Under the pieces are notes generated by a model. The model worked only from the letters and a program-made list of their open reading frames with translations. It was not told the DNA's origin and did no database searches. Position numbers and translations under genes: made by a program. Of a stretch of 63,470 bases of DNA, positions 28,474 through 53,891 are shown one piece after another. This DNA comes from an uncultured Eubacteriales bacterium (GTDB taxonomy: Bacteria; Bacillota; Clostridia; Christensenellales; CAG-138): the NCBI GenBank assembly GCA_900542615.1, contig UQOG01000003.1:1-63470 (forward strand), in the 5' to 3' direction. Each line of letters opens with the position of its first letter. The first letter of the stretch is position 1.

Positions 28474-29226
28474 TTACTCCTTTCCTTTGGGCTTTGCGCC
28501 CAGATCCACCTGATTGACCCCCTTGTCCAGCTTCCATTCCGTAAGGTTCGCTTTATCGGGGTCCAGTATATAAGCCGGTACGGGCTCCCGGAAAAAGGCC
28601 AGGATCTGACCCTTTTCGTCTGTATGATATTCCTGGGCGGGATAAAAGGCCGCCCCCCGCTTATGGGAAAACTGCAAGGGGGTATCCAAGGTGGCGTGCC
28701 CGCCCTCTGCGCCGGAAATGGCCACCACTTCGCTGTTTTTTCCATCCACGATCAGATAATTTCCCGGGAAGCGCCCCTCGGGCCCGCCCCGGAAATACAG
28801 CTTCGCCTCCCGGCTGCCCGCCTCCGCCGTATCCTGGGCCAGCTTCAGATCCGCCATGGCGGCCTTGGCCGCTACCCACAGGGCGCGGTCCGCTACCGGT
28901 TTCCCCCGCTCCGTCAGGGTGGCGGAAAGCTGGGTCATCTGGCTGTAAAGGGGATAGTTGGGGGCCGGCTTTAAGGTGACGTTTCGCTCCACATGGCCGG
29001 CTTCCGGGATCTCCAATAGGATCTTCTCATCCCGATACCGTCCGCCCCGCAGCACCACCGTATGGGGCCCGGGGGCCAGGTTGGTGAAGATCAGGTAGCC
29101 CCCCGGGCGGTAGCCCGGATGGCAAACCTGGCCGTCCAAGATACACCCCACGGCGTTTTGGGCCATAGGCTTGCCGGTAAACCCATCCCGCACAGCCAAA
29201 GCTGCGCTCAACCGCACGCGGATCAT
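28474..29226 (-). CDS. Hypothetical protein with carboxypeptidase-regulatory-like (beta-sandwich) N-terminal domain
   Basis: Trimmed to ATG 29226, which forms an ATGA overlap with the cap gene stop. GYLIFTNLAPGPHTVVLRGGRYRDEKILLEIP resembles the CarboxypepD_reg fold. The rest is unassigned. Confidence 0.6.
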   Translation of the reverse strand: MIRVRLSAALAVRDGFTGKPMAQNAVGCILDGQVCHPGYRPGGYLIFTNLAPGPHTVVLRGGRYRDEKILLEIPEAGHVERNVTLKPAPNYPLYSQMTQLSATLTERGKPVADRALWVAAKAAMADLKLAQDTAEAGSREAKLYFRGGPEGRFPGNYLIVDGKNSEVVAISGAEGGHATLDTPLQFSHKRGAAFYPAQEYHTDEKGQILAFFREPVPAYILDPDKANLTEWKLDKGVNQVDLGAKPKGKE

Positions 29227-29825
29227 AGGTTGCCTCCTTCCCGGATGCCGGCCTTTTCGTCCAACGCGATGGCCACGTCGCCCACCCGGGCCACCCGGCG
29301 GGTGCGCTTGCTGTCGATGAGGATGCCCTCCAGCTTGCACACGATGGATAGCTTATAGGGCTTGGTGGTATTGTTCCAGATCTTGATCATCTGGTCGAAA
29401 TTAGGCCGCTCCACGGAAATATGGATGGCCGCCCCGGTATCCAACAGGGAGCCCTGCAAATACTTCCGGTCCAGCACGGGCTGGTCCTTGAGTACCTGGA
29501 GCGCTGCCCCCAGCATCCGGTATTGATCCGCCTCCCGCAGCTGGGCGGGGGCCTTGGAATGGGCGGTGATCAAAAAGCTCAGCTGAAAGCGGGAAGGGGC
29601 CATGCGCTGCATGTTCCGGGTCTGTTGCATATAGCCCGCCTGGGGCGCGGCCTGCTTATCCTCCTCAATGTGGAACAGATAAACGGTAAGCTGGTTGTTT
29701 TCGCTTTCATGGGGGGAACACAGGGATATCAGATCCCGCTTGCTGATGGGCTCTGGGGTCATATTCTCCCGCAAAAGCTCCACCAGGCCGTTTCCCGCCT
29801 CCACAAAGGCCGTATAGTCTGCCAT
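29223..29825 (-). CDS. DUF4255 tail terminator/cap protein (Afp16/Pvc16-like)
   Basis: 200 aa. The N-terminal pattern LVELLRENM...ISLCSPHE...NQLTVYLFHIEED is characteristic of Pvc16_N/DUF4255. AGGAGGGAAGG SD present. Confidence 0.8.
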   Translation of the reverse strand: MADYTAFVEAGNGLVELLRENMTPEPISKRDLISLCSPHESENNQLTVYLFHIEEDKQAAPQAGYMQQTRNMQRMAPSRFQLSFLITAHSKAPAQLREADQYRMLGAALQVLKDQPVLDRKYLQGSLLDTGAAIHISVERPNFDQMIKIWNNTTKPYKLSIVCKLEGILIDSKRTRRVARVGDVAIALDEKAGIREGGNL

Positions 29826-29838
29826 CCGTCCTTCCCTC

Positions 29839-32349
29839 CTATCGGCTTAAGGCCGCCAGCCAATCATACTGGCTGGCCAGCATCCCATTGGTCAAGGTAT
29901 TCAAGGCGTACATCTGCACCGCGCAGCCGTGAATGGCCGTATGCAGATCCACCGTTGCCTGGCTGTGGGCGCACAGGGCGTCGCAACGGGCGGTCTCATC
30001 CACCGTGCCCATGGCGTATCCCTCCAGGGCTTTTTCCATATCCCCTTTGGCGGTATTGTAATCCGTCTGGGCTTGCAGCAGCTCCTGCCAGGCCAGTTCC
30101 AGATCCATCAACCCCAGGGCGATGGCCTCGCTATTTCCCGCCCCCTGTAACGCGTCCACATCCAAGGTGGCCGGGTCCACCAAAAACAGCGCCTCCGTCA
30201 AGTCATAATCCGCCAATGTCCCCGTCAGGGTACCCTTGGCTTCCAGCTGGATCTTCTCCATGGCCACCATGGCCCGGTTGGCGCTCAACTCCAGCTTGTT
30301 TACCTCCGCCGTCAGGGCGTCCACCGTCTCCTGGCTGCCTGTGCCCATGCTGCACTTTTTTTCTTCCGCCGCCAGCAGGGCCTTCTTCCACGCCGCCTGC
30401 TCCTCCATGGCCTGCCGGGTCTCCCCCTGCAGATAATAATCCGCCATGGCGGTCAGCCCCGCTTCCAGGGAGGCCCCCGAGGTGGCGCCTAACAACGCCG
30501 CCGGCGCCGCCGTGCCGTAATATTCGCAGCCCGGCCCTTCGCCGGCCGCGGATAGGGCGGCCGTTGCCCCGCTGCTGGCGGCAGCAGCGGCGGACGTTTG
30601 GGCGGTTTCAGCGGCGCTGCCGCTTGTTTGCGGCTCTGTTTGGGATTCCCCTACGGCCTCCCCGGTGGCACCGGCATCCTCCGTCAGCCCCAGCTTGCCC
30701 AGTAGGCTGTCCATCCGGGTGGCGTTCCCGCCATCCCCGGCGCTCCCCGACCCGGAGGCGCCCGGCAGGCTCTGGTTCACGATCCATTCCACCATCACCC
30801 ATTCCGTTTCCCCGGGCTGGCTCCAGCCCACGAATACATAGTCCTCGTAATAATAGGCGGTCCGGTGATAGGTGCCGTCGGGATAGGGCACCCCGCCGGT
30901 AAACACGGCGGCCTCGTCCCGCTCCTGCTTGTCGTACCCTGCGGCCTGGGCCTCGTATTCCGCCGGGGTATGCCAGGACATGGCGTCCGCAAAGGGGTCC
31001 GCATCCCGGTCATAGCCGTATACATAATATACCGTGGGGTCCGCCTCTTCGGTCTTGTAGGTACAGAACAGGGTCACGCCCAGGGCTTTGTTGTTGATGG
31101 AGAACCCGTTGCGCTCCCCCGGGGTCTCCATCAGCTCCGCTTCCCCAAAGGCCGCCCGCACCTCGTCCCCGGTCTTGTTGAGCAGCGCCCCCAGATCCGG
31201 CACCCCATGGATCATATTGCCGATGTAAATGGATTCCCCGGTGCTGGCATACAGGGTGCCTTCCCCATGGGGCACCAGCCCTTCCACATAGCCCTCGTAA
31301 TAGAGCTTGCCGCCCCAATGGATGGTCACCGCCCCCACCGGTTCCCCGGCCTCAAAGGTGCCGGTGAGCCGCAGGTCCTTGCGGATGTTCAGCACCCCGT
31401 CCCCGGAATACAGCCCTTGCAGGAACCCGCCCTGGTATAACAGGCTGCCGTCCTCGTTATAGAGGTTGCCCGTCTGGTCATACAGGCCGTCCAGGAAGCC
31501 GCCCTTATACTGCACCTGGCCGTTTTCATAGTACAAGGTGCCCTCGCCGTCGTATTTCCCCTGCAAATAGCCGCCCCGGTGGAGGATCTGGCCATTGGGG
31601 TAATAGGAAGTGCCCGTGCCGTCGTACAGGTCTGCGGCAAAGTCCCCCTTGTAACATACGATGCCGTCTTCATAGGCGGTGCCGGTACCCTCCCGCAAGC
31701 CGCCTGCAAACTGGCCTTCGTATAGGATCTCTCCGTCCTCATACAGGGTGCCCTTGCCTTCATAGACCCCGCCGGCAAAGTCGCCGGTATACACCAGCAC
31801 CCCTTCTTCATAATAGCTGCCCTTGCCCTCGTACATGCCGTCTACAAAGGCGCCTTCATACAGGACCCGGCCCGCCTCGTCATAGGCTTTGCCCTGGCCC
31901 TGGATCATGCCGTCCTCCATTTTGCCCTGGAGCATGGGCATATCCTTTTCCGGATCGTAATATACGATCACCTTCCCGCTGTAGGTGGGCACCGCTTCAT
32001 CCTTCTGATACAGCCGGGCGGTAAAGAACATGCGCACCAGCCAGGGCCATATCACGAAATAGAACAGCAACCCGAAGGCGATCAGCCCCACCGCCAGCAT
32101 GACCAGCAGGGACTTTGCCACGAACAATCGCTTGGTCTCAACGAAATCCTCCCGCTTGGTGGGCTTTTTCCCGGCCACCGCCACCGAGGACATGGCCTTG
32201 GGCACCAGCCGCACCGCCTGGCGGGACAGGCTGGTGACCCGGCGGATACGGGCCCGAAGCCCCACCACCTGCCGGGTGAGGAAGGCTCGGAAGGTACGGA
32301 ATACCAGCCCGCAGGAATTTAGGATTTGCTGAAAAAATCTTGCGATCAC
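29839..32349 (-). CDS. Single-pass membrane protein with ~12 MORN repeats, low-complexity linker and helical C-terminal domain
   Basis: GTG 32349 with an AGGGAGGA SD. The N-terminus is Arg/Lys-rich, followed by the TM LLVMLAVGLIAFGLLFYFVIWPWLV. Repeats follow the pattern YEGxFxxGxxxGxGTxYxxDG. A Ser/Ala/Gly/Thr-rich tract and a coiled/helical C-terminus follow. Confidence 0.8.
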   Translation of the reverse strand: MIARFFQQILNSCGLVFRTFRAFLTRQVVGLRARIRRVTSLSRQAVRLVPKAMSSVAVAGKKPTKREDFVETKRLFVAKSLLVMLAVGLIAFGLLFYFVIWPWLVRMFFTARLYQKDEAVPTYSGKVIVYYDPEKDMPMLQGKMEDGMIQGQGKAYDEAGRVLYEGAFVDGMYEGKGSYYEEGVLVYTGDFAGGVYEGKGTLYEDGEILYEGQFAGGLREGTGTAYEDGIVCYKGDFAADLYDGTGTSYYPNGQILHRGGYLQGKYDGEGTLYYENGQVQYKGGFLDGLYDQTGNLYNEDGSLLYQGGFLQGLYSGDGVLNIRKDLRLTGTFEAGEPVGAVTIHWGGKLYYEGYVEGLVPHGEGTLYASTGESIYIGNMIHGVPDLGALLNKTGDEVRAAFGEAELMETPGERNGFSINNKALGVTLFCTYKTEEADPTVYYVYGYDRDADPFADAMSWHTPAEYEAQAAGYDKQERDEAAVFTGGVPYPDGTYHRTAYYYEDYVFVGWSQPGETEWVMVEWIVNQSLPGASGSGSAGDGGNATRMDSLLGKLGLTEDAGATGEAVGESQTEPQTSGSAAETAQTSAAAAASSGATAALSAAGEGPGCEYYGTAAPAALLGATSGASLEAGLTAMADYYLQGETRQAMEEQAAWKKALLAAEEKKCSMGTGSQETVDALTAEVNKLELSANRAMVAMEKIQLEAKGTLTGTLADYDLTEALFLVDPATLDVDALQGAGNSEAIALGLMDLELAWQELLQAQTDYNTAKGDMEKALEGYAMGTVDETARCDALCAHSQATVDLHTAIHGCAVQMYALNTLTNGMLASQYDWLAALSR

Positions 32350-32402
32350 GTATGGATCCTCCCTGGAAAATCATCCTGTCCGGGCCGCGGCCCTTTGGGG
32401 GA

Positions 32403-32780
32403 TTAGAATAGGTACTGGATCAGCAGCAGGGCAATGCCTGCAAGCAACGCCGCCGCCACCACCCCGCCGACGATCCGCCGGGTCAGCCGTTTGTAATAGT
32501 CCGGCGCCACCCTAAGGGGCTGCACCGGGGAGCGGCGCACATAGCCATCCGGAGCTAAGACGGCCGGCTGCTCCTGCACATAAACCCCGGCCTTGGCCCG
32601 CTTGGGGGCGGCCTGTTTTTTTCGGGCCCGCTCCACCCGTTGGGCGGCGGCGCCGATCCTGGCGTTGGCGTAGCCCACGATGCTGGTCTCCCGGCGGAGC
32701 TCCGCCTGGGCGGTCCGCACCTGGTTCCGGGCCGCGCTCTTGACCTGGTTGCCCACCAGGTTCAAGGGATTGATGGCCAT
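32403..32780 (-). CDS. Small tail-anchored membrane protein (125 aa)
   Basis: ATG 32780 lies 2 nt after the upstream stop. It has a basic helical N-terminus and a single C-terminal TM, IVGGVVAAALLAGIALLLIQYLF. Confidence 0.6.
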   Translation of the reverse strand: MAINPLNLVGNQVKSAARNQVRTAQAELRRETSIVGYANARIGAAAQRVERARKKQAAPKRAKAGVYVQEQPAVLAPDGYVRRSPVQPLRVAPDYYKRLTRRIVGGVVAAALLAGIALLLIQYLF

Positions 32781-32782
32781 GG

Positions 32783-35272
32783 TTACACTTCCCTTCTGCT
32801 GGCCGGCTCCGACCCGTTCAGGCCGATCCAATCCGGCGCCTGCTTTTCAAACCGATCCGCCAGATACAGATAATGCCGCGCCACGCCGTCCTCGCCCTGC
32901 TGCCGGGCGATCTCCATAAACAGCCGCTTGGCCTGGGCGAAATCCCCGCTGTACAGGGCGTAGATCCCCGCGCTGAAGGAGGCCCGGGCGCTTTCCTTGG
33001 CCAGCCGCATTCCGTAGGGGTCCCCGTCGAAGATCTCGTATACCCGGATCGGGCTATCCCCATCCCGGCTCTTGCCGATATAGCGCAGGTGATATTCCTT
33101 GGCCGCGTCCGCCACCGCCATGGTACATAGGATGTTGGCGTCCAGCACCTGGGCCAGCTCCACCAGCTTGCGGGCGGTGTTCAGGCAGGCGGATACCACC
33201 GTGGGCACCACCCGGTCCTCGTCCCCCACCACGCCCATCATGGCCACCCCATGATCCAGGGCCACCCGCAGCTCCACCGGCGCGTCGTCCCGGGCTTCCC
33301 GCTGGGCGTTGAGCTCTAAAAGGGCCTGCCGGACCTCCACAGCCGCCCCCACCGCTGCCTGGGGCCCGCTTTCAAACACCGCGTCAAAGCCGTCGTGGGT
33401 AAAGTTATAAATGGTGCCCCCTGCGCCGGATACAGCGCCGGCGATGTGGGCGAATACCTCGTTAATGTTGTCGAACAGGGTCTGGGCGTCCTGCTGATAG
33501 GCTGCCTCCGGGAAGCGGAAGCGCACCACCATCATGGCGATCTCCTGGGATACGCTGGTATCCTTATCTACCTGCTCGATGTTGGCGACCCCCAGCAGGG
33601 CCACCAGCCGCCTGGGCACGAAGCGCATATACGCGCTTCCCGCCAGAGCCGCGCTTTCCTTTTTCTTCTCCAGGGCCCCGCTCAGGTCGTTGAAGGCCGC
33701 AGCCAGGGCTTCCAGCTCGTCTCCGGTATGGTGCTCCACCCGCACCTGGGGCGCTCCGCTGGCCAGCAGGTCCACCCCGCGGGTCACCCGCCGGGCGCCC
33801 AGGGCAGCCTCCCCGATGGCCAACAGGCTCAGCAGCGCCACCAGGGCCACCGCCCCGTAGGCATACAGGCCCAGCTCCAGGATGCCCCCCTGGATCGCCT
33901 GCTCCAGAGCCTTATCCTGCACCCGCACATAGAGCGCGCCGCCCTCCGCCTTCAGGCAGACGGCGTAATAATAGCCGATGCCGCCGGATGTGGCGTGGCC
34001 GGCATATTGCCCCTTTTCCCGGGCCAGGGCCAGCTGCTCCGCCACCCCGGGCAGGAAGCCCGGCGTCTGCAGGGTTGTGCCCGCCGCCTCCGGGCCGGAG
34101 CTGGCCAGCACTTCGTAGGCCCCATCCCCTCCCTGGCCCAATGCCAGGAAGGTGCAATCCGCATAATCCCCATCCGCCTGGGCCAGGGCCTGGGCGGCCT
34201 GGGTCAAGCCCGCCTCGTCCTGGGCGTCCACCTGGGCGGCCTGGGCCTCCAGAGCGGCCAGGATGTTCTGCTCCGCGCCGGCCCGGTACCGGGGCCCCAC
34301 CGCGATCAGCAGCGCCGTGCTTACGGCCACATAGCCTGCCAGGCCCAGCCACAGCAGGTTTTTCACCACCAGGGGGAAGTATAGCTTCTGGTATTCGCAC
34401 ACCAGATAGTAGAACCCATAGGACAGGAACAGCACCCCCGCCACCAGCAGGGCCAGCACCAGGCCGCTCTGCCAGGGGATCCGGTACAGGCCGGCGCTCA
34501 GGTCGGTATGCCCGCCTTGTGGGGATACCGATAGCAACATCTGCCCGCTCTCATAGAGGAGGGCCAAGGCCCCCCCGTTCCCATCGGGGGCCAGCCACGC
34601 CACGCTGGCGCCGGGCAGACCCGCCAGGGAAACGGCCTGCCTGGCCTGCTCCAGGGCCGCCGCGTTGGCGGCCTGGGCCTCCTGAACATCTTCCCCCGTC
34701 AGGGCGCCGGCGGCCACCAGGCCCTGGCCCTGGGCCGGATCAAAGGTATAGGCGGCGTATTCCCCCTCCTGGAGCACCGCCAGCTCCACCAGCTCCCCGG
34801 CGTCGGCGGCGTACAAGATCCCGGCGCTGGCCCGCCGCTGATCCCCGGTGGTCCCCGACAGGGGGGCCTCCAGCAGCAGCTGGAAGGGCTGCTCCGGCAA
34901 AGCCGCATACAGGGCATAGCGGGTCAGCTCCACGCCGGCCCGCTCATACAGCCCCAACAGGATGCAGCCGTTTTTCGCCACATAAATTTGTTCCACGGAA
35001 AAGTCCTGGGGCAAGCCCTCGGAAAGGGGCCGCTGGGAAACCCGGCCCTCCGCGCTGGCGCCATATAGGCTATACCCGCCGCCCCGCTCCGCTTCCAGGG
35101 CGTAGGCCACCCCGTCCGCCCCCTGGACGGCCTGGATAAAGGTACGCGTCCCGCCGCCGCTGCGCAGGTTTTCCGCCATATCCCCCAGCGCCGCCGGAAA
35201 CAAGCTGTAGAGCAGCACGCCAAACACGGCGATAAACAATAGGAAGATCGAAAACTTGCGAAGATTTCTCAT
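32783..35272 (-). CDS. Multi-pass membrane protein: ectodomain plus HAMP-like linker plus class III nucleotidyl-cyclase homology domain (probably degenerate) plus C-terminal TPR-like repeats
   Basis: Trimmed to ATG 35272, an ATGA overlap with the upstream stop. The HAMP-like string is GDELEALAAAFNDLSGAL. The cyclase-like strings are IAMMVVRFRFPE..., GGTIYNFTHDGFDAVFE, LRVALDHGVAMMGVVG and VSACLNTARKL. The C-terminus reads GIYALYSGDFAQAKRLFMEIA...ARHYLYLADRF. Confidence 0.75.
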   Translation of the reverse strand: MRNLRKFSIFLLFIAVFGVLLYSLFPAALGDMAENLRSGGGTRTFIQAVQGADGVAYALEAERGGGYSLYGASAEGRVSQRPLSEGLPQDFSVEQIYVAKNGCILLGLYERAGVELTRYALYAALPEQPFQLLLEAPLSGTTGDQRRASAGILYAADAGELVELAVLQEGEYAAYTFDPAQGQGLVAAGALTGEDVQEAQAANAAALEQARQAVSLAGLPGASVAWLAPDGNGGALALLYESGQMLLSVSPQGGHTDLSAGLYRIPWQSGLVLALLVAGVLFLSYGFYYLVCEYQKLYFPLVVKNLLWLGLAGYVAVSTALLIAVGPRYRAGAEQNILAALEAQAAQVDAQDEAGLTQAAQALAQADGDYADCTFLALGQGGDGAYEVLASSGPEAAGTTLQTPGFLPGVAEQLALAREKGQYAGHATSGGIGYYYAVCLKAEGGALYVRVQDKALEQAIQGGILELGLYAYGAVALVALLSLLAIGEAALGARRVTRGVDLLASGAPQVRVEHHTGDELEALAAAFNDLSGALEKKKESAALAGSAYMRFVPRRLVALLGVANIEQVDKDTSVSQEIAMMVVRFRFPEAAYQQDAQTLFDNINEVFAHIAGAVSGAGGTIYNFTHDGFDAVFESGPQAAVGAAVEVRQALLELNAQREARDDAPVELRVALDHGVAMMGVVGDEDRVVPTVVSACLNTARKLVELAQVLDANILCTMAVADAAKEYHLRYIGKSRDGDSPIRVYEIFDGDPYGMRLAKESARASFSAGIYALYSGDFAQAKRLFMEIARQQGEDGVARHYLYLADRFEKQAPDWIGLNGSEPASRREV

Positions 35273-36018
35273 GCTTTGCGTCCCTTTCTCTTTTTCCACA
35301 GCCGTTTACACCATCTACCCAGGTTCTGGAAGCATAGGTACAGGGCCCGCTGCAGGGAGGATTTCGCCTCCAGGGCCTCATAATCCGCGATGATCCCTTC
35401 CTTGGCCCGCAGCCAATGGCTATATAGGGCCACCGGCGTCAAAAACGCCTGCTCTTCCAAGCTATCCAAAAAGCGGATCTCCGCCTTGGGGGAGCTGAAC
35501 CGGCGAAGCAATACCTTCTTGACCTGGTCCATCAGCAGCAAGGCTTCCTCCCGGGGGTTCATATCCGCCAGGGGCAGCACCTGATACTGGACCTCCAGCC
35601 TGCCCTCCTTGGGCCAGATCCGCAGGTTGTCGCTGAGCAGGGCGGCGCAGGCGATCTCCGGCGGATAATCGGAAATGGACAGCCCCAGGTGGAACAGGGC
35701 CTGGGCCGTATCCACCCGTTCCTTCCAGCTTACCTCCGCCCCCTTATAGAATACCTGGTCGATGGGGGCGCCGTCCACCGCGTCGAACACCGCCACCAGG
35801 CTGCCCTTATCCATAAATATCCCATGGTACGCCGGGCAATGGCGCAGCCGGTCAAAGCTGTCCACATAGGTCTTGACCAGCTGCCCCTCGTATACGTTCA
35901 GCAGGTATTCCCGTTTGTCCCGGCTTTCCAGATCCACGGCCAGCAGGGCCGCATACTGGTCCTGGGCATGTTGGATATGGGTCACCTTATATCTGGAACG
36001 GATCAGGATCGCGTCCAC
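35269..36018 (-). CDS. Hypothetical soluble protein, faint degenerate protein-kinase-like layout
   Basis: The track ORF starts at TTG 36060. GTG 36018 behind AAGGGAGAAAGGGG is the more likely start. ILIRSRYKVTHI...YLLNVYEG...SLVAVFDAVDGAPIDQVF...LSDNLRIWPKEGRLEV loosely follows the kinase subdomain order but has no glycine loop, VAIK Lys or HRD. The functional call is weak. Confidence 0.55.
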   Translation of the reverse strand: MDAILIRSRYKVTHIQHAQDQYAALLAVDLESRDKREYLLNVYEGQLVKTYVDSFDRLRHCPAYHGIFMDKGSLVAVFDAVDGAPIDQVFYKGAEVSWKERVDTAQALFHLGLSISDYPPEIACAALLSDNLRIWPKEGRLEVQYQVLPLADMNPREEALLLMDQVKKVLLRRFSSPKAEIRFLDSLEEQAFLTPVALYSHWLRAKEGIIADYEALEAKSSLQRALYLCFQNLGRWCKRLWKKRKGRKA

Positions 36019-36049: not shown

Positions 36050-37819
36050 TTATTCCACAATCACATAGGCGCTGGCCGCCACGCTTTCATCCGCGCTGGC
36101 CGTGGCTACGATCTCATAGGTGCCCTGGGCCTCCGGCGCCTGATAGATGCCGTTCTGGTCGATGGCCCCGCCGCCGGCGTCCTTCACCGTCCAGATCACG
36201 CTCTTATCCTCGCTGCCCTGTACCACCGCCTTGAAGCGCATTTGCTCCCGCTTCTCCAGCCTGGATACCTCCGGCACGATGCTCACCCGCACCTGCCGGT
36301 TCTCCAGCAGCCGCTTGGTATCCCGCTCGGGCTTCTGGGCGTAATAATGGATGCGCACCCGGTTCCCCTCCACGTTGTCGTGGAGCCAGATCCCGATCCG
36401 CATGGTGCCCTTGCCGGGATACACCACCGCCGCCGTCTCCACCCAAGGGGCTGCGATGGGGCTATTCTTGGAGCGGAACACCTCGCTGTTGCCGAACAGG
36501 TGGGCCTCCCCGTCGTTTTCAAATTCCACCGCCAGCCGCACTTCCACGTTCCCCGGCCCCAGGCCGTGGGGGATCTCCTCGGACATATACCGGCCGTTTA
36601 CCTTGATGCCGCCCGGCATGGCGATGTCCACGATGCCGTGGCTGGTGGTATAATCGTACAGCTCCGGCGACGGGATGCCAAAGGCCAGGTGCAGCGCATT
36701 TTCGCTCTGGGAATAGCTGGCCTTCACGTCCGGCTTCTGCCAGAACTCCAGGGATTCCACCGAGGTGGTCACCTCCAGCCGGTCCTGGCCCGCCGTCTGG
36801 GCCGTCCGGTCCCGATCCAGCCGCTGCCCGAAAGGCAGGTTGGTCACATGGCCCAGGAATACCCGGTCCGTGGACTGGATCAGCTCCAGCTTGGCCAGAT
36901 AGATGGGGGTCTCCCGGCCCTTCAGGTGCTGGCTCAGGTCATCCTTTTGATGCTTCAAATCCAGGTATGCCGTCCGGTCTGCGCAAAGGGCGATCTCCGC
37001 CGGGATCTCCAGCATGTTTTTGTAGGTATGGCCCCCCATTTCGATGGTCAACTCCGCCCCGTTGGGGAACAGGGGCGCCACGATGTCCGAAAGGCCCTGG
37101 GCCTTGAGCCGGAAGGTGGTGACCAGCACGTTGCGGGTCTCCTCCGGGCTCTCGCTATAGCTTAGGCTGATCCGGCCGTCCTCGCCATCCACGATGCCGC
37201 ACTCCCCTTCCAGGGTAAAGCGCACCGGCGGGGTCTTTTCGTTTTTGACCACCAGCATACCCGCGGTGAATTCATCCCCGCCGCATACCGCCGCGTCCAC
37301 GAAGAACACCAGGGTCAGCCCGTTGTCCCCGTACAGGATGCGCACGTTTTCCCGGCCCATGGTCTCCAGCAGGCCCCGGTATTCCGGCGGCTCCGCGGAG
37401 AAGTACAGCTTATAGCCCTCCCGGGTCATATTGAACTGGCTGGTGGCCCCCGTATCCGAGCCCACCGCGTTCACCGGCTCCGTATCGGTTTCATCGTAGG
37501 CCAGGCACAGATACGCGTCCGCCTGGTCCTTCAGGGAGCCATAGCCTTCGATCATCTCCAGCCGCCGCACCAGGGGCTCCTCGATGACCACCTCCCGGCC
37601 CAGATAGTCCAGGGCCATGCCGCTGCCGATGAGCAGGGTGGTATCGTCGCTGCGGCTCACTCCCAGGCCGCACACCACGCCCGCGCCATGCACCACACGG
37701 TTGACCAGGCGGCGCTTCGCGCTTGCATAGTTCTGCTCCGCCTCAAAATCCCGCACCGTAAGCAGCTTTCCATAGAAATACCGGTTTCGCTCCATGGGGA
37801 AAAAGCTAACGTCCTTCAA
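36050..37819 (-). CDS. CIS distal baseplate / tail-fibre-like protein with C-terminal Ig-like (Big_2-type) domain (Afp13 position)
   Basis: TTG 37819 with a GGAGGA SD. The N-terminal string RNRYFYGKLLTVRDFEAEQNYASAKRRLVNRVVHGAGVVCGLGV is a pattern I associate with eCIS-locus fibre/baseplate-distal proteins. The C-terminal string VSIVPEVSRLEKREQMRFKAVVQGSEDKSVIWTV...GIYQAPEAQGTYEIVATS is Big_2-like. Confidence 0.6.
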   Translation of the reverse strand: MKDVSFFPMERNRYFYGKLLTVRDFEAEQNYASAKRRLVNRVVHGAGVVCGLGVSRSDDTTLLIGSGMALDYLGREVVIEEPLVRRLEMIEGYGSLKDQADAYLCLAYDETDTEPVNAVGSDTGATSQFNMTREGYKLYFSAEPPEYRGLLETMGRENVRILYGDNGLTLVFFVDAAVCGGDEFTAGMLVVKNEKTPPVRFTLEGECGIVDGEDGRISLSYSESPEETRNVLVTTFRLKAQGLSDIVAPLFPNGAELTIEMGGHTYKNMLEIPAEIALCADRTAYLDLKHQKDDLSQHLKGRETPIYLAKLELIQSTDRVFLGHVTNLPFGQRLDRDRTAQTAGQDRLEVTTSVESLEFWQKPDVKASYSQSENALHLAFGIPSPELYDYTTSHGIVDIAMPGGIKVNGRYMSEEIPHGLGPGNVEVRLAVEFENDGEAHLFGNSEVFRSKNSPIAAPWVETAAVVYPGKGTMRIGIWLHDNVEGNRVRIHYYAQKPERDTKRLLENRQVRVSIVPEVSRLEKREQMRFKAVVQGSEDKSVIWTVKDAGGGAIDQNGIYQAPEAQGTYEIVATASADESVAASAYVIVE

Positions 37820-38924
37820 CTTCGTTTCCTCCGATCATAGTGTCATAGTGGATGGTGGTGTTTTCATCTATTACAACCGGGACATAATCGCTTACCATGG
37901 TATTGACCCCCAGGTAGGTATGCCGGTCCAATTGTACGCATCGCTTAAGCAGCACCAGCTCAAATTCCGTGCCCGCCGGGATCAGGCGCTGCATCCGTTC
38001 CAAAAAGGCTTCCATCTGGGCCCGGCTGTGGAAAGCGTCCTCCGGCAGCAGAATGAAAAACTGATAGGGGTTTTCCCCGTACAGCCGCCGGTACAAGGCG
38101 GAATTGGCGCAATCCGGCCGGTTGGGGTCCACGTCCGCGCTTTCGATGAGCAAGGGCGTCTGGCCGGTGAGCCGCCGGACGGAGCGCTTGATCCCCGCCA
38201 CCGTGTACAGGCTTTCATAATCCGCCTGGGCGGTGCGGATCCGGTCCGCCAGGGTCTCGCCCCCGCCTTCCTCCGCCCCCACGCACATCCAGTCCGCCAG
38301 GTATTCCAGCATGGGGCCCGAGGTGTTCTCATAGTCGAACCGGGCGGGCAGGTCGTAGATGGCCTGTTCCATATCCATCATAATGCTGTCGAATATGGAA
38401 AGGAAGCGTTTTGTGAAATCCCCGTTCTCCCGGTAGATGGCCGGCAGGTAATCCACCATATGGTCCCCCGCCATGTGGAGCCGCAGGGCCTCCAGCCCGG
38501 GCGCGGGCCCGGAGGCAAAGAACTCCAGCATCAGCCACAGATAGCGGCCGTTCTGGTCGATGTAAAAATCCTCTCCCTCCCCCACCGGGGTGAACAGGGC
38601 CTCCAGGGCCTCCTCCGCCTCCGGTGCGCCGGGGGCCAGGCTGGCCAGGTATGCTTCCAGGGTGGCGTAATCCCCATAGGGGGCTGCGTCCGCCGCATAG
38701 GCCCGGGTGCGGATCAGGCTATCCTGGGCCAGCCGGCAATCCAGGGACGTCCGGCCCCAATAAAAGCCCGTTTCCCCGCTATCCAGGCCCCATAGGCAAA
38801 TGACCCCCCGCCTGGCGCCTGGCGCCAGGGTCAGGCCGTCCCCTTCGGGGACCACCCCCCAGCAATAGGCGGCGCGCCAATCCTCCGCTTTGTTCAGCAC
38901 AAGCTGTCGTTGAAGCCGTTTCAT
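37806..38924 (-). CDS. Baseplate protein, phage P2 gpI-like tail protein
   Basis: LPAIYRENGDFTKRFLSIFDSIMMDMEQAIYDLPARFDYENTSGPMLEYLADWM matches the gpI/TIGR02242-type tail protein pattern. AGGAGGAAAGG SD present. Confidence 0.75.
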   Translation of the reverse strand: MKRLQRQLVLNKAEDWRAAYCWGVVPEGDGLTLAPGARRGVICLWGLDSGETGFYWGRTSLDCRLAQDSLIRTRAYAADAAPYGDYATLEAYLASLAPGAPEAEEALEALFTPVGEGEDFYIDQNGRYLWLMLEFFASGPAPGLEALRLHMAGDHMVDYLPAIYRENGDFTKRFLSIFDSIMMDMEQAIYDLPARFDYENTSGPMLEYLADWMCVGAEEGGGETLADRIRTAQADYESLYTVAGIKRSVRRLTGQTPLLIESADVDPNRPDCANSALYRRLYGENPYQFFILLPEDAFHSRAQMEAFLERMQRLIPAGTEFELVLLKRCVQLDRHTYLGVNTMVSDYVPVVIDENTTIHYDTMIGGNEVEGR

Positions 38925-38944: not shown

Positions 38945-41008
38945 CTAGCGGGTCTGTAGATCCAGGGAGCCCAGGTAGGCGATGGCGTTCTGCTTGAGCC
39001 TCAGGTCCCCCCGGGGATCCTCGTAGCAGTCGGGCCGCAGGGCCCTTAGCTCCAGCCGCTCCACCTGCATCACCCCGTCCAGGGCCATCAGCTCCGCCAT
39101 CAGGTCGTCCTTGACCACCGGGTCCCCGATGGTCCGGCCCTGCCTGCCCGTTTCCAGGTAAGCCTCCACCTGCCGCCGGATAGCCGCCTCCAGGCCGGGG
39201 CCCCGGCCCCGCACCTGCAAGCGCACCCCCACCGGCACGTATTGGGGCGGCACCACCTTCACCCGGGTGCATACCGGCCGGTATCGCTCCAGCTGGGCCT
39301 GGATCGCCGCCATAAAAGCCGCGTCCGGCATGGGCCGCTCCTGGGCGCTCCAGGGGCGCACCACCACCGTCACCACCGGGATCCGGCTGCGGCCCGCAGG
39401 CTCATCCGGGTCAAACCCGGCGATGGCCTTGGCCTGGGCCACCCGCAGCCCCGGCGTCGCCAGGGCCAGGCGCTCATAGTCCGCCTGGGACACGCATTTA
39501 TAGGTATCCTCCATGGAATGGAGGAAGGCGGTAGCCGCATCCTGCAGGCTTTGGGCCTCCCGGCCGCCTACGGCCGCCCGGTTGTCCGCAGGGCTGCCGT
39601 CTGCAAAGGTAAGGCCGCAGCCCTCCGGCACATTGCCCCTGCTGCAATAGGACAGGGCCAGGGAGGCGATCATCACCCCCTGCTCCCCACGGGGCGGGAT
39701 GGCCCCATGGGCCCCGTCCCCGAAGAGCAGCTGTTCCCCGGCCGGGTCAAAGGTAAAGGCCAGATCCCGGGGGCCGCAGGCGGACAAGTCCGCCACATAC
39801 CGCCACAACCGGGGTCGCACCTGGCCATCCCGGCAGCGGGTATCGCAGATGAGGGCCAGGGTCTCAGGCAACGCCTGCCTGCCCCCCAGATCCAATTCGA
39901 TGGCCATATTGGGCAACCCGGTGGAGGGGTACAGCAGCCGGTTATACCGCAGGGCGTCCTGGCTCACCACCAGCAGGTTGTCCTGGCCGTCCTGGGCGCT
40001 GCCCGCGCCCTGCACCGTCACCGCCAACCCGTCCGCCGTGGGCCGCTGCGCCCATTCCGCCACCCTTAGCCCCGCTTCCTCCCGGAGGAACAGGTAGACC
40101 CCGCCGGTCTGGGACACCGCGTCCTGCAAAAGGAGGGTGGTCTCCCCCGGCCCGATCCTGTGCCAGCGAAATCTGGCCCAGGTCTCCTGCTGGGCGCTGC
40201 GGAACCAGCCGGCGGATACCTGGCTGAGCCGCACGTCCTCCTCGCAGCCGTGCCGGGTCTCCTCCGCCACCAGATACCGGCCCGGGGGCAGCCCGCAGCC
40301 GCCGTCGCTTTCCCCGAAGCCTTCCGGGAAGGTAAAGGTGATAAAGCCGCTATGGCTCAAGGCGTGGGTCTCATCCTGGACCTGGGGCAGGGCGTCTGTG
40401 CCCCAGCACCGCCATGCCAACGTCCGCGGGGCCGCCTGGCCTGGGGCGAAGGGGTTCCGGTCCACGGGCCGCTTGTCGTCCACCTCAAACCACAGGCGCA
40501 TGACCCGTTCTTCCCCGGAGATGCCGATGATCAGCTGGCCGCCGCCCTTTCTAGGCAGGAAGGGCCATATGGTGATGCCCGGCTGCCCCATAATGCCGGT
40601 CATATCCTGAGGGCCCTGGGGCCCGTTCAGATAGATGGCCGTCACCTGGCCCCCCGCCCGGGCGGGCTCCAGCAGCTCGAAGCATACCCCTTCGCTATTT
40701 TCCAGCCGGGCCAGCAGGGGATAGGCTTCCCCCTCCTCCCAGGCCGGGCGCACCAGGCAGGCCGCCGGCCGGGCCGGCGCGGGGATCACGCCCAGGAGCT
40801 TGAGGAACTTCTGCTTGAGCTCCTCCGTCACCACGTTCATGTGGTATTGCTGCATTTCCTTATACCAGGCCATCAGCTCCAAAATGGTGATGCCTGGGTC
40901 ATGGGCGTTATGATCCGTCCAGGCGGGGCAAAGCCAGGGCAAGCGCCCCAGGGCATATTCCATGATATCCCCAAAGGTCTGGTCGTCCAGATTCCTGGAT
41001 CGCAGCAT
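38945..41008 (-). CDS. Baseplate J-like (gp6-like) wedge protein, second paralog (Afp11/12-like)
   Basis: N-terminal DDQTFGDIMEYALGRLPWLCPAWTDHNAHDPGITILELMAWY and C-terminal VSQADYERLALATPGLRVAQAKA are typical of Baseplate_J proteins. Confidence 0.85.
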   Translation of the reverse strand: MLRSRNLDDQTFGDIMEYALGRLPWLCPAWTDHNAHDPGITILELMAWYKEMQQYHMNVVTEELKQKFLKLLGVIPAPARPAACLVRPAWEEGEAYPLLARLENSEGVCFELLEPARAGGQVTAIYLNGPQGPQDMTGIMGQPGITIWPFLPRKGGGQLIIGISGEERVMRLWFEVDDKRPVDRNPFAPGQAAPRTLAWRCWGTDALPQVQDETHALSHSGFITFTFPEGFGESDGGCGLPPGRYLVAEETRHGCEEDVRLSQVSAGWFRSAQQETWARFRWHRIGPGETTLLLQDAVSQTGGVYLFLREEAGLRVAEWAQRPTADGLAVTVQGAGSAQDGQDNLLVVSQDALRYNRLLYPSTGLPNMAIELDLGGRQALPETLALICDTRCRDGQVRPRLWRYVADLSACGPRDLAFTFDPAGEQLLFGDGAHGAIPPRGEQGVMIASLALSYCSRGNVPEGCGLTFADGSPADNRAAVGGREAQSLQDAATAFLHSMEDTYKCVSQADYERLALATPGLRVAQAKAIAGFDPDEPAGRSRIPVVTVVVRPWSAQERPMPDAAFMAAIQAQLERYRPVCTRVKVVPPQYVPVGVRLQVRGRGPGLEAAIRRQVEAYLETGRQGRTIGDPVVKDDLMAELMALDGVMQVERLELRALRPDCYEDPRGDLRLKQNAIAYLGSLDLQTR

Positions 41009-41032: not shown

Positions 41033-43960
41033 TTATACCACCCGGATGGTGTGGTTCCCGCTGCGCACCGTGGCAAAGGGGAACCCATCGTCCGTATCCA
41101 AGGCGCACAGACAGCGCCGTCCGTCTTCAAAATAACTGCCCTCGCAGGACACCCGCTCCACGCTGCGCACATTGGGCGTAGCCTTGATGGTGCGGTATAG
41201 CTCCAGCAGGTTGATCTGCTGGCCGATCTCCCGGCTGCGCCAGGTCTTTTCGATCAGGGCCGCGATATGCCCCATCAGCGCCTGCTGGGTGGTGGCCGCC
41301 TGGTCCAGATCCCACATCTGCACCTGGGCGTGCACGTGTACCGTCATCTCCGTGGAGGGCACCACGTGGAGCCGCTCCCCGGCGATCAGGTTGCAATCGC
41401 ACCGCTCTGCCAGGTAGTCGTAGATCTCCCGGCACAGGTTATAGCCCATGGCGGTCTCGGAAAGGTCCTTGCCCATCACCACCAAACATACATGGCCCGG
41501 GGCGTGGCGGCCCTTTTGATCCGTATTGGAGAAGCATTTCACATGGGCGGCCCGGGAGAAGCGGAAGAGCACCATCTGCTCAAAATCCGCCGCGCCCAGA
41601 GCCCTGCCCCGGTGGCGAATGCACTTGTTACCAAGGCTTTCGATTTTTTCCATGGGGGTAGGGTCGGTGCCGCCGCTCATGGGGCCAATGTTTACCACCC
41701 CGGTGATCCGGGGTAAGGAGCCCACCAGGGCGTTGACCTGGCCGGCTGGCAGGTTTCCCCGCACGCCACCTCCATAGAAGTAGGTCACTCGGATATTCAG
41801 CGTACCCTTGGGGGGCACCTTGCCGTTGCGGCCGTTGCCGAAGCGGATGATCCCCGCCAGGGCCTCCAGCTCATAAACCCGGGCGTCCCCATCTGCCAGC
41901 AACAGATTGGAAACCGGTTCCCAGCGGACGAAGCAATGGGTCACCAGCCCTTCCTCCCGCTCCAGCCGGATCCGGCCGGGCAGCTGGGCTTCCAGCTGGG
42001 CCATCTGGCCGGCGGACAGCTCCCCGGCTTCATCCACCCACACCTGGCATTCCAGCACCGGGGTCTCCAGCAGCTCCAGGGTCTTATCCACCTCATAGGC
42101 TTCCGTGCTGAAGTATTGATCTGCGCCCCGCTGCTGCTGCCGGGCCTCCACGATGTTGAAGTCCAGCCCGGTCACCTGGGGCGCGGGCCGGGTGAGGGGA
42201 GTGAAGGAGCTCAGGCTCATCCGCAGCCAGCAGCCCGTTTCCCCAAAGAAGGTGGTCTCAGGCACCGGCTGGGAGATATACAGGAAGGCCGTGCCCGTAT
42301 AGCGCATATTCTTGGTTTGATCCACCGTGCGCACCTGGACGAACCCGGTCCCGTCCCAGGCCTCAAAGAGGATCTTGCTGGGCAGCCGGGTCTCCCCGGC
42401 GATCTGCATCAGCATGGACAGGGGCATCCCGTGGGGCGAGCCGTCAAAGCGCAGATACATGGCCCGGGGATGGGGAGGCAGGGGATCGTAGACGGTCATG
42501 GCCAGGTCCGTGACCCCCTCCGCCTCCGGGACCTCGGTCAGGGTGGCGTTGTTCCAGGCACGCACGGCCTGGGCAGGCCGCAGGTGGTCGTATTGGAAGT
42601 TGCACTGGATCCCCTTCACAAAGGGCAAGATCCAGCGGGGAATGGCGCTCAGGTAGTTTTCCACGTTCACCACCCGGGCCCGGATGTAATAGCCGGTTTC
42701 CGCGTTGACCGTGGCGGCCGCCATGTCCTCCGGCACCGTGAACAGCACCAGCAGCGCCCCCTCCCGCTTGCAGGAGAAGGGGTTCTGGTTGCCGCCCACC
42801 GAAAGCTTGGCCCAGCCGGTGCCGTTGTAGTACTCCCACACCACCTGCTCCACGAACACGTCGTCCGGCAGGATGCGCACCGCGTCGTTCTTATCGATGA
42901 TCCGCTTGTTGAATTCGTATTGGGGCTCATCCCCCACGGTGGAATAGATCACCGGCACGATATCCAGCCCCAGGTTTACCCGGGCGCCCCGCTTGCAGAA
43001 CACCCGGTCGGAGCGGATGTAGAACATCTCATAGGGGGCGGGCCGCCGGCCAAAGCAATAGCCGCCCTCCGCCAGGGAGATGGGGATGTCGTTGTTGGAG
43101 GCGCTGTCCGCGGCCACGCTTTTGGGGATCATGCTTCGCAAGGCGATGCCGCTGAGCTGAATGGCGCCCTCCACCTTGGGGCTCACATCGCAGTAGATGT
43201 AAATGTTGCCGTCCGCCTCCGGGCAAAGGGCCTTTTCATCCTCCTTGAACAGCCGCAGGATACCGCCCTCCGCCTGCACCCGGTCAAAGGCCGGGTAATC
43301 CACCCCGTCAAAATACCGCCAGGCGGCCCCTTCCGGGTCCCCCAGGGTCTGGGCGGTGGCAGCCTCCAAAAACCGGGCGGTCTGCCGCAGGGAGATCTGC
43401 AATTCGCAGGGGCCCGCCAGGTCCAACACCTGGTTCTGGGCAAAGGCGAACCGGTGGAACTGAAGGTTTGCTTCCCCGGTGGGGGCGAAGAAGGGCTGCT
43501 CTTTGGAACGATCCAGCCGCTCGATCCGGCCCGCCTCCGGGTCCACGTAATATACGTCCGCCAGGCTGGCGGTAATGGCCTCGATCCGGTGGGTGGTGGC
43601 AAAGACCGTATTGGTGCCGTCCTCTTCCTGGGCGGCGGCAAAGATCTCCGTGCCCGCCGGCACCGGCACCGGCCCGCCTTCCCCGCCGGCTTCAAAGCGC
43701 ACCAGCCCGCACGCAGGGGTCACCCCCGGCCCGGGCACGCCCAGCAGGTTGAGAAATTCCGTATAATGCTTTTGCGGCAGCAGGTTGAACCGGTCGATGG
43801 TCTGATAAAACATCTCCCCAAACAGGGTGGCGATGGCCGCCCCGGGGTCGGTTTCATCCCCCTGCTCATAGCGCCATTCCGGGACGTATTCCCCCGCCCG
43901 GCGCTGGATCAGGTCCATCAGGTCCTTCTTGGTCCGCGGGTCCAGGATGGGCTTGTTCAT
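41033..43960 (-). CDS. Large baseplate J-like (gp6-like) wedge protein (Afp11/12-like)
   Basis: 975 aa. The N-terminal string is LMDLIQRRAGEYVPEWRYEQGDETDPGAAIATLFGEMFY. A J-like C-terminal string is LGAADFEQMVLFRFSRAAHVKC. ATGA overlap with gp25. Confidence 0.85.
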   Translation of the reverse strand: MNKPILDPRTKKDLMDLIQRRAGEYVPEWRYEQGDETDPGAAIATLFGEMFYQTIDRFNLLPQKHYTEFLNLLGVPGPGVTPACGLVRFEAGGEGGPVPVPAGTEIFAAAQEEDGTNTVFATTHRIEAITASLADVYYVDPEAGRIERLDRSKEQPFFAPTGEANLQFHRFAFAQNQVLDLAGPCELQISLRQTARFLEAATAQTLGDPEGAAWRYFDGVDYPAFDRVQAEGGILRLFKEDEKALCPEADGNIYIYCDVSPKVEGAIQLSGIALRSMIPKSVAADSASNNDIPISLAEGGYCFGRRPAPYEMFYIRSDRVFCKRGARVNLGLDIVPVIYSTVGDEPQYEFNKRIIDKNDAVRILPDDVFVEQVVWEYYNGTGWAKLSVGGNQNPFSCKREGALLVLFTVPEDMAAATVNAETGYYIRARVVNVENYLSAIPRWILPFVKGIQCNFQYDHLRPAQAVRAWNNATLTEVPEAEGVTDLAMTVYDPLPPHPRAMYLRFDGSPHGMPLSMLMQIAGETRLPSKILFEAWDGTGFVQVRTVDQTKNMRYTGTAFLYISQPVPETTFFGETGCWLRMSLSSFTPLTRPAPQVTGLDFNIVEARQQQRGADQYFSTEAYEVDKTLELLETPVLECQVWVDEAGELSAGQMAQLEAQLPGRIRLEREEGLVTHCFVRWEPVSNLLLADGDARVYELEALAGIIRFGNGRNGKVPPKGTLNIRVTYFYGGGVRGNLPAGQVNALVGSLPRITGVVNIGPMSGGTDPTPMEKIESLGNKCIRHRGRALGAADFEQMVLFRFSRAAHVKCFSNTDQKGRHAPGHVCLVVMGKDLSETAMGYNLCREIYDYLAERCDCNLIAGERLHVVPSTEMTVHVHAQVQMWDLDQAATTQQALMGHIAALIEKTWRSREIGQQINLLELYRTIKATPNVRSVERVSCEGSYFEDGRRCLCALDTDDGFPFATVRSGNHTIRVV

Positions 43961-53459: not shown

Positions 53460-53891
53460 TCAATGTTGGAATACACCTGATTGTTTGGCGCAGGCCTCCA
53501 TTTGGGTCCAGAAGTGTTTCATCACCCCTGCGCTGTACTCCAACGCCCGGGTGATGGATTCCTGGGCGCTGTAAGCGTCGAACAGATCCGCGCTGACCCG
53601 CAGCACGATCCGCTCCCCCGAAAGGAATAGCCCGCCCCTTGTGAGGGCGGCGTTGACCTGGTTCACCTGGTGCAACGCCCGTCCCTTGTCCGCCACGGGA
53701 AACGGGTATACGCCATAGATCATAACCGTCTGCGGCGCATACCGGCAAACGGTCTCCCACCTGCGGCTCCCATCCTCAAACACGAACCGCACGCCGTCCT
53801 TTTCCCCGCGGTACGGAATGCCGTTGTAGGCGAGCGCCTCCAAAAGGGCTGCCGCGGGATCCACTCGCTCGTCAGGAAGATAGCCGGCCAT
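53460..53891 (-). CDS. YbjN/T3SS-chaperone-like fold protein (candidate cargo chaperone)
   Basis: 143 aa. RFVFEDGSRRWETVCRYAPQTVMIYGVYPFPVADKGRALHQVNQVNAALTRGGLFLSGERIVLRVS follows the YbjN-family secondary pattern. CAGGAGG SD present. The assignment is by eye only. Confidence 0.5.
   Translation of the reverse strand: MAGYLPDERVDPAAALLEALAYNGIPYRGEKDGVRFVFEDGSRRWETVCRYAPQTVMIYGVYPFPVADKGRALHQVNQVNAALTRGGLFLSGERIVLRVSADLFDAYSAQESITRALEYSAGVMKHFWTQMEACAKQSGVFQH

Follow-up and report, generated by a model that had tools for sequence, protein, structure and literature searches.

What do four genes for membrane and signalling-type proteins do in the middle of a contractile injection system (CIS) gene cluster, in the slot directly after the baseplate genes that usually holds tail fibres? 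The question is raised by a contig from an uncultured Eubacteriales bacterium (UQOG01000003.1; "the window" hereafter means the whole stretch analysed, 63,470 nucleotides, nt), in which four consecutive open reading frames (ORFs), here called genes a, b, c and d, are embedded on the minus strand between a gene of the Cis13 family and the Cis16 cap gene. An earlier note on this DNA had read them as a possible membrane anchoring or trigger module defining a new CIS subtype. Comparison with related loci strongly supports the view that the four genes are integral to the injection system, and we give an even chance to the more specific reading that their products form a lineage-specific membrane docking or trigger complex of catalytically dead signalling folds. 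To our knowledge, the only CIS studied behind a thick Gram-positive wall is the cytoplasmic CIS of Streptomyces with its adaptor CisA; CIS action in this setting is largely open, and genes a to d are concrete candidates for the link between particle and envelope. The locus type is common in gut Clostridia and carries an invariant, unannotated membrane module, the databases labelling its proteins only "hypothetical" or "MORN repeat protein". In a literature search that could miss subscription-only papers, none was found that links CIS with Oscillibacter or MORN; publications on CIS with Clostridia and extracellular CIS (eCIS) are, by their titles and abstracts, not about this module, and a metagenome survey of CIS makes no mention of Clostridia or Firmicutes.

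Layout of the gene cluster

Matches to Pfam and NCBIfam models on the minus strand, from 25875 to 53373, identify the cluster as a CIS of Afp/PVC-type gene content, with a sheath, tube, VgrG-like spike, gp25, baseplate J/Cis11, Cis12, DUF4255 cap and AAA ATPase all represented. The run opens with the sheath gene and continues with three gp19-type tube genes, CIS_tube, a YQBQ-like gene, the VgrG-like spike and gp25, followed by two large baseplate proteins (975 and 687 amino acids, aa; TIGR02243/Baseplate_J), a Cis12-family protein, a Cis13-family protein and then genes a to d. Downstream of the four genes are the DUF4255 cap, a conserved 250-aa gene, DUF4280, the AAA ATPase and a DUF4157/eCIS_core protein. 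The members on which the argument turns are as follows (TM, transmembrane helix):

51622-53373, minus strand: sheath
41033-43960, minus strand: Cis11a, large baseplate protein
38945-41008, minus strand: Cis11b, large baseplate protein
37806-38924, minus strand: Cis12-family protein
36050-37819, minus strand: Cis13-family baseplate-periphery protein of 589 aa, directly upstream of gene a (NCBIfam NF053767, CIS13_fam, residues 9-152, E 1.7e-26)
35269-36018, minus strand: gene a, 249 aa, predicted soluble pseudokinase with a basic C-terminal helix, overlapping gene b by 4 nt (AlphaFold2 and Foldseek)
32783-35272, minus strand: gene b, 829-aa predicted membrane receptor with 4 TMs, two ectodomains and, on the cytoplasmic side, a HAMP-like segment, a degenerate cyclase-homology domain and a helical C-terminus that is conserved
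32403-32780, minus strand: gene c, 125 aa, predicted tail-anchored protein (hydropathy TM at 103-121)
29839-32349, minus strand: gene d, 836-aa predicted bitopic protein (AlphaFold2 model, pLDDT 84)
29223-29825, minus strand: Cis16/Afp16 cap gene (Pvc16_N, DUF4255), directly downstream of gene d (Pfam E 1e-27)

The gene upstream of a had been described as fibre-like. Its N-terminal domain instead places it in the Cis13 family (NF053767, about E 2e-26), while the fibre-like description, as given in the earlier note, applies to its C-terminal region. No TM helix is predicted in this protein, and a homologue adjoins the sheath gene in a haloarchaeal type VI secretion system (T6SS) cluster (E 6e-14). 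A prophage tail was rejected as an identity for the cluster, the tested flanks being without a capsid or terminase gene; they hold housekeeping genes of an anaerobe (Fe-only hydrogenase, NrdD), with tyrosine recombinases far to the left.

From cis13 through a, b, c and d to the cap gene, the successive gaps are 31, -4, 2, 53 and 13 nt. The four ORFs and the two close junctions on which the earlier note had built are real: a and b overlap by an ATGA at 35269-35272, an overlap that recurs in 8 of the 9 other loci with gene calls, and b and c are separated by 2 nt at 32781-32782, a spacing that ranges from -14 to +63 nt elsewhere. Start codons and ribosome-binding sites of all four were checked on the minus strand and agree with the coordinates listed above, and the a-d region holds no excess of promoter-like or terminator-like sites.

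Long ORFs arise cheaply in high-G+C DNA, and length alone is no proof of coding. As the region of the window has a G+C content of 62-68% (54-67% in orthologous loci), ORF length is uninformative here and the coding evidence for a to d is comparative. Measured against a closely related locus, the ratio of nonsynonymous to synonymous substitution rates (dN/dS) is 0.06 for a, 0.16 for b, 0.23 for c and 0.14 for d, next to 0.13 for cis11b and 0.09 for cis13. Orthologues are 70-74% (a), 56-64% (b), 50-60% (c) and 61-69% (d) identical, with gp25 at 73-76% and Cis11b at 59-65%. These comparisons confirm a to d as real genes under purifying selection, which diverge about as fast as structural genes and have dN/dS values resembling those of baseplate genes. 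The long plus-strand ORFs that cross the region (29421-30902, for example) are taken as antisense artefacts of the high G+C content.

Conservation of the module

A scan of GTDB with one genome per species, queried with the gene a alignment, returned 13 loci, all with a homologue of a. In 9 of the 9 that have enough downstream sequence, the order is cis13-a-b-c-d-cap, and in the remaining loci, which have shorter flanks, the expected order is kept as far as the sequence reaches. The carriers are Anaerotruncus spp., Oscillibacter valericigenes Sjm18-20, another Oscillibacter, Christensenellales and unclassified Clostridia. The locus of O. valericigenes Sjm18-20 lies in a complete genome (AP012044.1, 2457204-2477881) and carries the full module, and because this strain is cultured the idea developed here is testable. 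Metagenomes were scanned with Cis13, and not with a to d, as the anchor, which gave 363 relatives and 80 loci kept. All 44 loci with 6 kb or more of sequence downstream of cis13 have a, b and d, and in all 39 with 7.7 kb or more the cap gene comes after the module. Human-gut contigs with a Cis13 96-99% identical to that of the window occur among the relatives. In look-ups of individual homologues (b to 57%, a to 43% and d to 29% identity), the arrangement was always cis11a-cis11b-cis12-cis13-a-b-c-d-cap-p245-DUF4280(-AAA).

The most divergent metagenome subclade, loci L103-L109 (Cis13 42-43% identical), shows which parts of the module are constant. Gene c is absent there, leaving a gap of at most 32 nt between b and d, and the TolC-like C-terminal domain of d (described below) is absent as well, the two having been lost together; in L103, whose gene d was read as the example, the product has 645 aa and a Pro/Thr-rich tail in place of the TolC-like helices. 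The invariant core thus consists of a, the TM-HAMP-pseudo-cyclase part of b, and the N-terminus, TM and MORN array of d.

Taken together, these data strongly support a module that is integral to the CIS. This had been the expectation of the earlier note, which proposed co-occurrence with CIS cores in other Clostridia as the test; the related loci do carry these genes, and later insertion or passenger status is rejected by the invariant synteny. Homologues of a to d are absent from the haloarchaeal, Streptomyces and Paenibacillus clusters discussed below, which points to a lineage-specific module, and by its distribution across the genomes compared the module is specific to an Oscillospirales/Christensenellales lineage.

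Predicted products of the four genes

Gene a starts with a GTG codon preceded by GGGAGAAAGGGG, and the length of its orthologues (243-252 aa) agrees with this start. The protein has no sequence match in Pfam (Pkinase included), NCBIfam or the PDB, and an hhalign comparison of its profile with an approximate PknB sequence gave a probability of 0.06, that is, no similarity. Its AlphaFold2 model, built on a 31-sequence alignment (pLDDT 91), nevertheless resembles a protein kinase: PknA/PknB-type Hanks kinases head the Foldseek matches (E 4e-7, TM-score about 0.5), and kinases make up nearly all of the best 50 among 1326 PDB matches at E<=1e-3. The Gly-rich loop, beta3 Lys, HRD and DFG motifs are absent from the invariant and near-invariant columns of the 31 homologues, the motif positions having been placed from the secondary structure of the model and the list of invariant columns, not by structural alignment. 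Gene a is thus modelled as a Hanks-kinase fold stripped of its catalytic motifs, a pseudokinase, which bears out the faint and catalytically dead kinase-like layout that had been noticed in the sequence. Active kinase signalling by gene a was rejected, the catalytic motifs being missing across the family. This family is small: a hidden Markov model search of 1.84 billion representative proteins yielded 152 relatives, nearly all of them free-standing and about 245 aa long, or pieces of proteins of that kind.

Gene b encodes the most elaborate of the four proteins. Hydropathy places TMs at residues 7-25, 269-287, 307-325 and 473-491, so that two ectodomains are predicted, at residues 26-268 and 326-472; neither has a match in Pfam or NCBIfam. 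The cytoplasmic half, which is far better conserved than the variable ectodomains, contains two recognisable parts:

33668-33793, minus strand: HAMP-like linker, residues 494-535 of b (Pfam HAMP E 8.4e-4)
32993-33550, minus strand: class III cyclase-homology domain, about residues 575-760 of b, predicted inactive (PDB 2W01, 6FHT)

The match to the HAMP profile falls directly after the fourth TM; with a cut-off of 25 bits, it scores 20.1 for b itself and 24.8 for a homologue from locus L009. The segment is also matched by the BaeS/MtrB models of NCBIfam. The cyclase-homology domain matches PDB 2W01 over residues 601-760 (E 1.5e-6) and 6FHT (E 1.7e-6), and the L009 homologue matches Pfam Guanylate_cyc at E 0.007. 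In 12 divergent homologues, the first metal-binding Asp is missing from all 12 and the second is kept in 10; the Lys/Glu specificity position is occupied by Asn, and the transition-state Asn and Arg vary. Active cyclase signalling was rejected on the catalytic residues across the family, and the domain is most likely a pseudo-cyclase. The predicted multi-pass topology, large ectodomain and cyclase-homology domain described in the earlier note thus hold, and its HAMP-like linker corresponds to a match of sub-threshold score. Its TPR-like repeats do not hold, no TPR family matching the C-terminus at E<=0.01; a single conserved helical motif of about 45 residues is found there. In locus L011 (10729-12165), a 478-aa homologue lacks both ectodomains and keeps the four TMs, HAMP-like linker, pseudo-cyclase and C-terminal motif.

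Gene c, as proposed earlier, has the profile of a tail-anchored protein, its one predicted TM lying at the C-terminus. A conserved APDGYVRRSPVQ motif begins at residue 76, ahead of the TM helix, and the protein has no Pfam or NCBIfam match. It is cut to 84 aa in L011, the same locus that holds the ectodomain-less b.

Gene d, whose family comprises 147 clusters, has a single predicted TM at residues 82-100. Its single-pass layout, Arg/Lys-rich N-terminus and MORN repeats had all been recognised in the earlier note, and each is upheld here. Three parts of the protein can be assigned:

32107-32349, minus strand: residues 1-81, basic N-terminus, predicted cytoplasmic (18 Lys plus Arg against 3 Asp plus Glu)
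31210-32019, minus strand: residues 111-380, MORN beta-hairpin array, predicted outside the membrane (MORN1, 6T6Q)
29845-30501, minus strand: residues 617-835, four long helices, TolC-like, that is, resembling outer-membrane efflux proteins (OEP) (Foldseek)

The N-terminus is the best-conserved part, with a mean identity to the window protein of 0.59 in a 44-sequence alignment, against 0.19-0.57 for the other regions. The MORN array scores 33.9 bits with Pfam MORN (cut-off 22.5) and matches MORN1 in the PDB (E 1e-12); in the model it forms about 11-12 beta-hairpins that superimpose on 6T6Q (Foldseek E 2e-14, target-normalised TM-score 0.79). After the array, the model contains an alpha/beta domain, with no Pfam or NCBIfam match, a disordered Ser/Ala/Gly/Thr linker and then the four long helices, which had escaped notice in the first reading. 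Foldseek relates these helices to TolC, CmeC, PDB 5AZO (a Pseudomonas membrane protein) and ST50 (E 2e-5 to 2e-4), and Pfam OEP gives a sub-threshold match (E 0.002, 18.3 bits against a cut-off of 22). The model contains no beta-barrel segment, only the helical part resembling TolC; the likeness is, as far as the model goes, one of fold and not of membership in the OEP family. The modelled TolC-like end would fit an extracytoplasmic location.

Relation to known systems

The structural core of the cluster has clear relatives. The sheath is closest to the solved structure 9EZM, from the T6SS of Halogeometricum borinquense (E 3e-122), and next to the Streptomyces cytoplasmic CIS (8BKY/9GTP, E 1e-105), while the best match of Cis11b is the baseplate J-like chain of PDB 9GTP (E 6e-18), presumably the Streptomyces Cis11. 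By these matches the core groups with the haloarchaeal clade IIa and Streptomyces-type systems. The "new CIS subtype" of the earlier note can be kept in part, as a clade defined by its accessory genes.

The H. borinquense T6SS is described as a membrane-bound, contact-dependent killing machine that works without an outer membrane and belongs, according to its authors, to clade IIa; Bacillota Cis11 proteins are reported as the haloarchaeal system's nearest relatives (PMC11566945). Its putative anchor, Hbor_38620, has 6 TMs and a cytoplasmic domain of about 150 residues and, as a conserved protein tied to the cluster, marks the membrane-bound clade, and the cluster includes an interspacing region with variable cargo- and immunity-type genes (PMC11566945). 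With this system the window shares Cis11a, Cis11b, Cis12, Cis13, the cap, the AAA ATPase and the DUF4157 cargo. The haloarchaeal gene order differs, the cap and AAA genes lying apart from the baseplate block, and whereas the haloarchaeal anchor is a single 6-TM protein, a to d are four genes without homologues around that cluster: none matched at E<=1 in 55 kb of pHBOR03, a stretch that includes HBOR_RS17580 (388 aa, multi-TM), taken as Hbor_38620 from its size and TM profile.

The second reference point is CisA (SCO4242) of Streptomyces coelicolor, which belongs to a type IId CIS, is bitopic with its N-terminus inside, and is encoded right after the baseplate genes (PMC12237407). CisA is needed for firing, is a predicted binder of Cis11 and is not found in the purified particle; it combines a disordered N-terminus with a substrate-binding-like C-terminal domain (PMC12237407). 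Gene d is CisA-like in its single TM, its basic and predicted N-in terminus, and its place after cis11, cis12 and cis13. CisA is a single protein, whereas the module spreads pseudokinase, HAMP/pseudo-cyclase, MORN and TolC-like parts over four, and no sequence similarity was found: a to d matched none of the ORFs of a Streptomyces plasmid CIS locus at E<=1 (phmmer), including a bitopic 370-aa gene at the CisA position. In a CIS locus of Paenibacillus they had no match at E<=0.01 either. All three clusters compared (haloarchaeal, Streptomyces and Paenibacillus) have a recognisable CIS core. Since no homology of a to d to the known anchors was detected, the analogy is confined to position and architecture. 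Membrane adaptors as a class are already known for CIS; the present candidate differs in being non-homologous, multi-component and built from dead signalling folds.

Dead kinase folds have precedents in other secretion machines of monoderm bacteria, as EssB/YukC of the type VIIb secretion system (T7SSb) and TraF of the pIP501 type IV secretion system (T4SS) are pseudokinase hubs in membrane cores (PMC13037476). EssB/TraF and gene a share a Hanks-kinase fold that has lost its catalytic residues, with PknB structures among the Foldseek matches of both; the likeness is one of fold, and no sequence relationship is claimed. They differ in that EssB and TraF have a TM and an extracellular domain of their own, whereas gene a is soluble and translationally coupled to the membrane protein b. 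If the reading offered here is true, the CIS would become the third case, after T7SSb and the Gram-positive T4SS, of a dead kinase fold in a secretion machine, paired here with the dead cyclase receptor b. The latter has, with a HAMP-like segment of sub-threshold score, the TM-HAMP-cyclase-homology domain order of the HAMP class III cyclase receptors (e.g., Cya2, PDB 2W01); unlike class III cyclases, it lacks the first metal Asp, has Asn as the specificity residue and has not conserved the transition-state Asn and Arg.

Possible function

A membrane anchoring or trigger function, as put forward in the earlier note, is plausible by analogy with these systems. Both enzyme-like folds (a and b) are without catalytic residues, which argues for scaffold or allosteric roles, and any signalling by them would be conformational or by protein-protein contact, not by cyclic nucleotides or phosphorylation; the notion of a "signal-gated" system is thereby narrowed to conformational or contact signalling. 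In the docking or trigger complex that we favour, the conserved cytoplasmic parts would assemble on the inner side of the membrane into a platform to which the peripheral baseplate (Cis11a, Cis11b, Cis12 and Cis13) is bound. Gene a would supply the pseudokinase, b its HAMP-like linker, pseudo-cyclase and C-terminal helices, c its N-terminal part and d its basic N-terminus. The variable ectodomains of b and the MORN/TolC-like exterior of d could then reach into the cell wall and report an envelope cue or contact through a HAMP-type conformational change, not through enzymatic signalling. Docking or release would set the place and time of sheath firing, for which there are two possible directions: out of the cell, the mode of the haloarchaeal T6SS, or into the membrane of the producer itself, the mode of Streptomyces with CisA.

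It is conceivable to go further and picture a membrane-anchored, outward-firing, T6SS-like system of monoderm gut Clostridia, in which a to d form a trans-envelope complex, with the pseudokinase a as its hub, the pseudo-cyclase b as a receptor linking an outside cue to firing, and d as a MORN/TolC-like strut that spans or opens peptidoglycan. Polymorphic DUF4157 cargo would then be delivered into neighbouring cells. This picture is rather unlikely. As between outward and suicidal firing, the polymorphic C-terminus of the cargo leans toward antagonism.

Several observations weigh against a docking or trigger complex. The tie of a to d to the CIS particle is one of gene neighbourhood, the topology of b, c and d is a prediction by hydropathy and the positive-inside rule only, and the four proteins have no detectable homology to the proteins at the CisA position or to the haloarchaeal anchor. 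Moreover, Paenibacillus and haloarchaea have related CIS that do without a to d, or at any rate occur without them, and the L103-L109 subclade manages without c and the TolC-like domain of d. Finally, the locus carries HAMP-SpoIIE-HATPase and transporter genes, which would also suit a purely regulatory role of a and b.

This last point leads to a reading that we consider unlikely, in which a to d would be a sensory or regulatory unit for CIS expression or assembly that anchors nothing, acting, for example, through PP2C/anti-sigma-kinase partner-switching proteins or LytTR regulators. The receptor architecture of b, with its ectodomains, HAMP-like linker and output domain, suits such a role, as do the HAMP-SpoIIE-HATPase_c_2 gene within the same gene run, the recurrence of SpoIIE, STAS or HATPase_c_2 genes downstream in other loci (L009, L011, L023, L028 and L029), and the two LytTR response regulators upstream of the CIS run. 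The output domains, however, are dead across the family, c and d are without regulatory domains, and the module sits between the structural genes cis13 and cis16 and not beside the regulators, with its order and a/b overlap conserved in the manner of structural genes. The exterior of d invites a different reading, that of a classical, released eCIS for which a to d serve export or release through the Gram-positive envelope, by remodelling the wall locally or by an exit resembling lysis, the MORN/TolC-like part of d acting in the wall. The wall-length disordered linker of d and its TolC-like helical domain would suit this task, the ORFs of the gene run that were compared with Pfam included no recognisable holin or endolysin, and the C-terminal region of Cis13 had been read as fibre-like. 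Release is nonetheless distinctly unlikely, since no hydrolase or holin-like domain was found in a to d, the TolC-like domain and c are absent in L103-L109, and the nearest characterised relatives are not released.

Variable genes for cargo and immunity are also frequent in CIS clusters, as in the haloarchaeal interspacing region, and a to d might be cargo, immunity or unrelated passenger genes in the operon. This is hardly credible: cargo varies, but a, b and d are found in every locus examined with enough flank, and between near-identical clusters in which the eCIS_core cargo swaps its C-terminal two-thirds, a to d are 80-96% identical.

Cargo and neighbouring genes

Beyond the structural run, the following genes of the window have a bearing on its biology:

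24274-25791, minus strand: DUF4157/eCIS_core cargo protein
18587-20578, minus strand: 663-aa membrane protein with HAMP, SpoIIE/PP2C phosphatase and HATPase_c_2 (anti-sigma-kinase-like) domains; TMs at 12-30 and 200-218
21229-24114, minus strand: 961-aa fusion of an N-terminal region (weak SGL/beta-propeller match) and an MFS_1 transporter
20606-21205, minus strand: GNAT-like gene after the MFS fusion
28474-29226, minus strand: conserved 250-aa gene, no family match (start at 29226 assumed from orthologous loci)
56086-56793 and 57039-57755, minus strand: two LytTR-type response regulators directly upstream of the CIS run
53460-55527, minus strand: three ORFs (366, 145 and 143 aa) upstream of the sheath gene, no significant family match
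47005-49476, minus strand: 823-aa ORF between tube genes, 72% G+C, rich in Ala/Gln/Pro (43% of residues), no family match
443-1714, 9147-10226 and 10305-11150, minus strand: three tyrosine-recombinase (phage integrase family) ORFs, left of the CIS

The cargo protein has a modular build. Compared with the protein of locus L008, its N-terminal third is 86% identical and its C-terminal two-thirds only 21-27%, in two loci whose core genes agree at 92-100%; the final third instead resembles that of the L004 protein (52%). By these identities, the modularity amounts to domain swapping of a polymorphic-toxin-like kind. Next to the cargo gene there is no obvious immunity gene, and only about 160 nt separate it from the following gene.

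That next stretch holds the MFS fusion, which recurs in L001, L004, L008 and L011, the last of which also has the GNAT-like gene; in L028 a MatE transporter occupies a similar place. SpoIIE-type genes in L009, L011, L023, L028 and L029 stand at the end of the CIS locus, downstream of the AAA or DUF4280 gene, and in L028 they are joined by a STAS protein, another SpoIIE and, as a gene of its own, HATPase_c_2. This CIS lineage seems to be accompanied by a partner-switching module.

The 250-aa gene overlaps the end of the cap gene by 4 nt in orthologous loci. In the CIS locus of Paenibacillus, a weak homologue (E 2e-7) is a direct neighbour of the cap gene, and the 250-aa product may belong to the CIS as a cap-associated component so far overlooked. 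Among the three ORFs upstream of the sheath gene, that of 143 aa has a sub-threshold YbjN match. The 823-aa ORF between the tube genes may encode a tape-measure-like or disordered component. Finally, the tyrosine-recombinase ORFs to the left of the CIS may mark the boundary of a mobile element.

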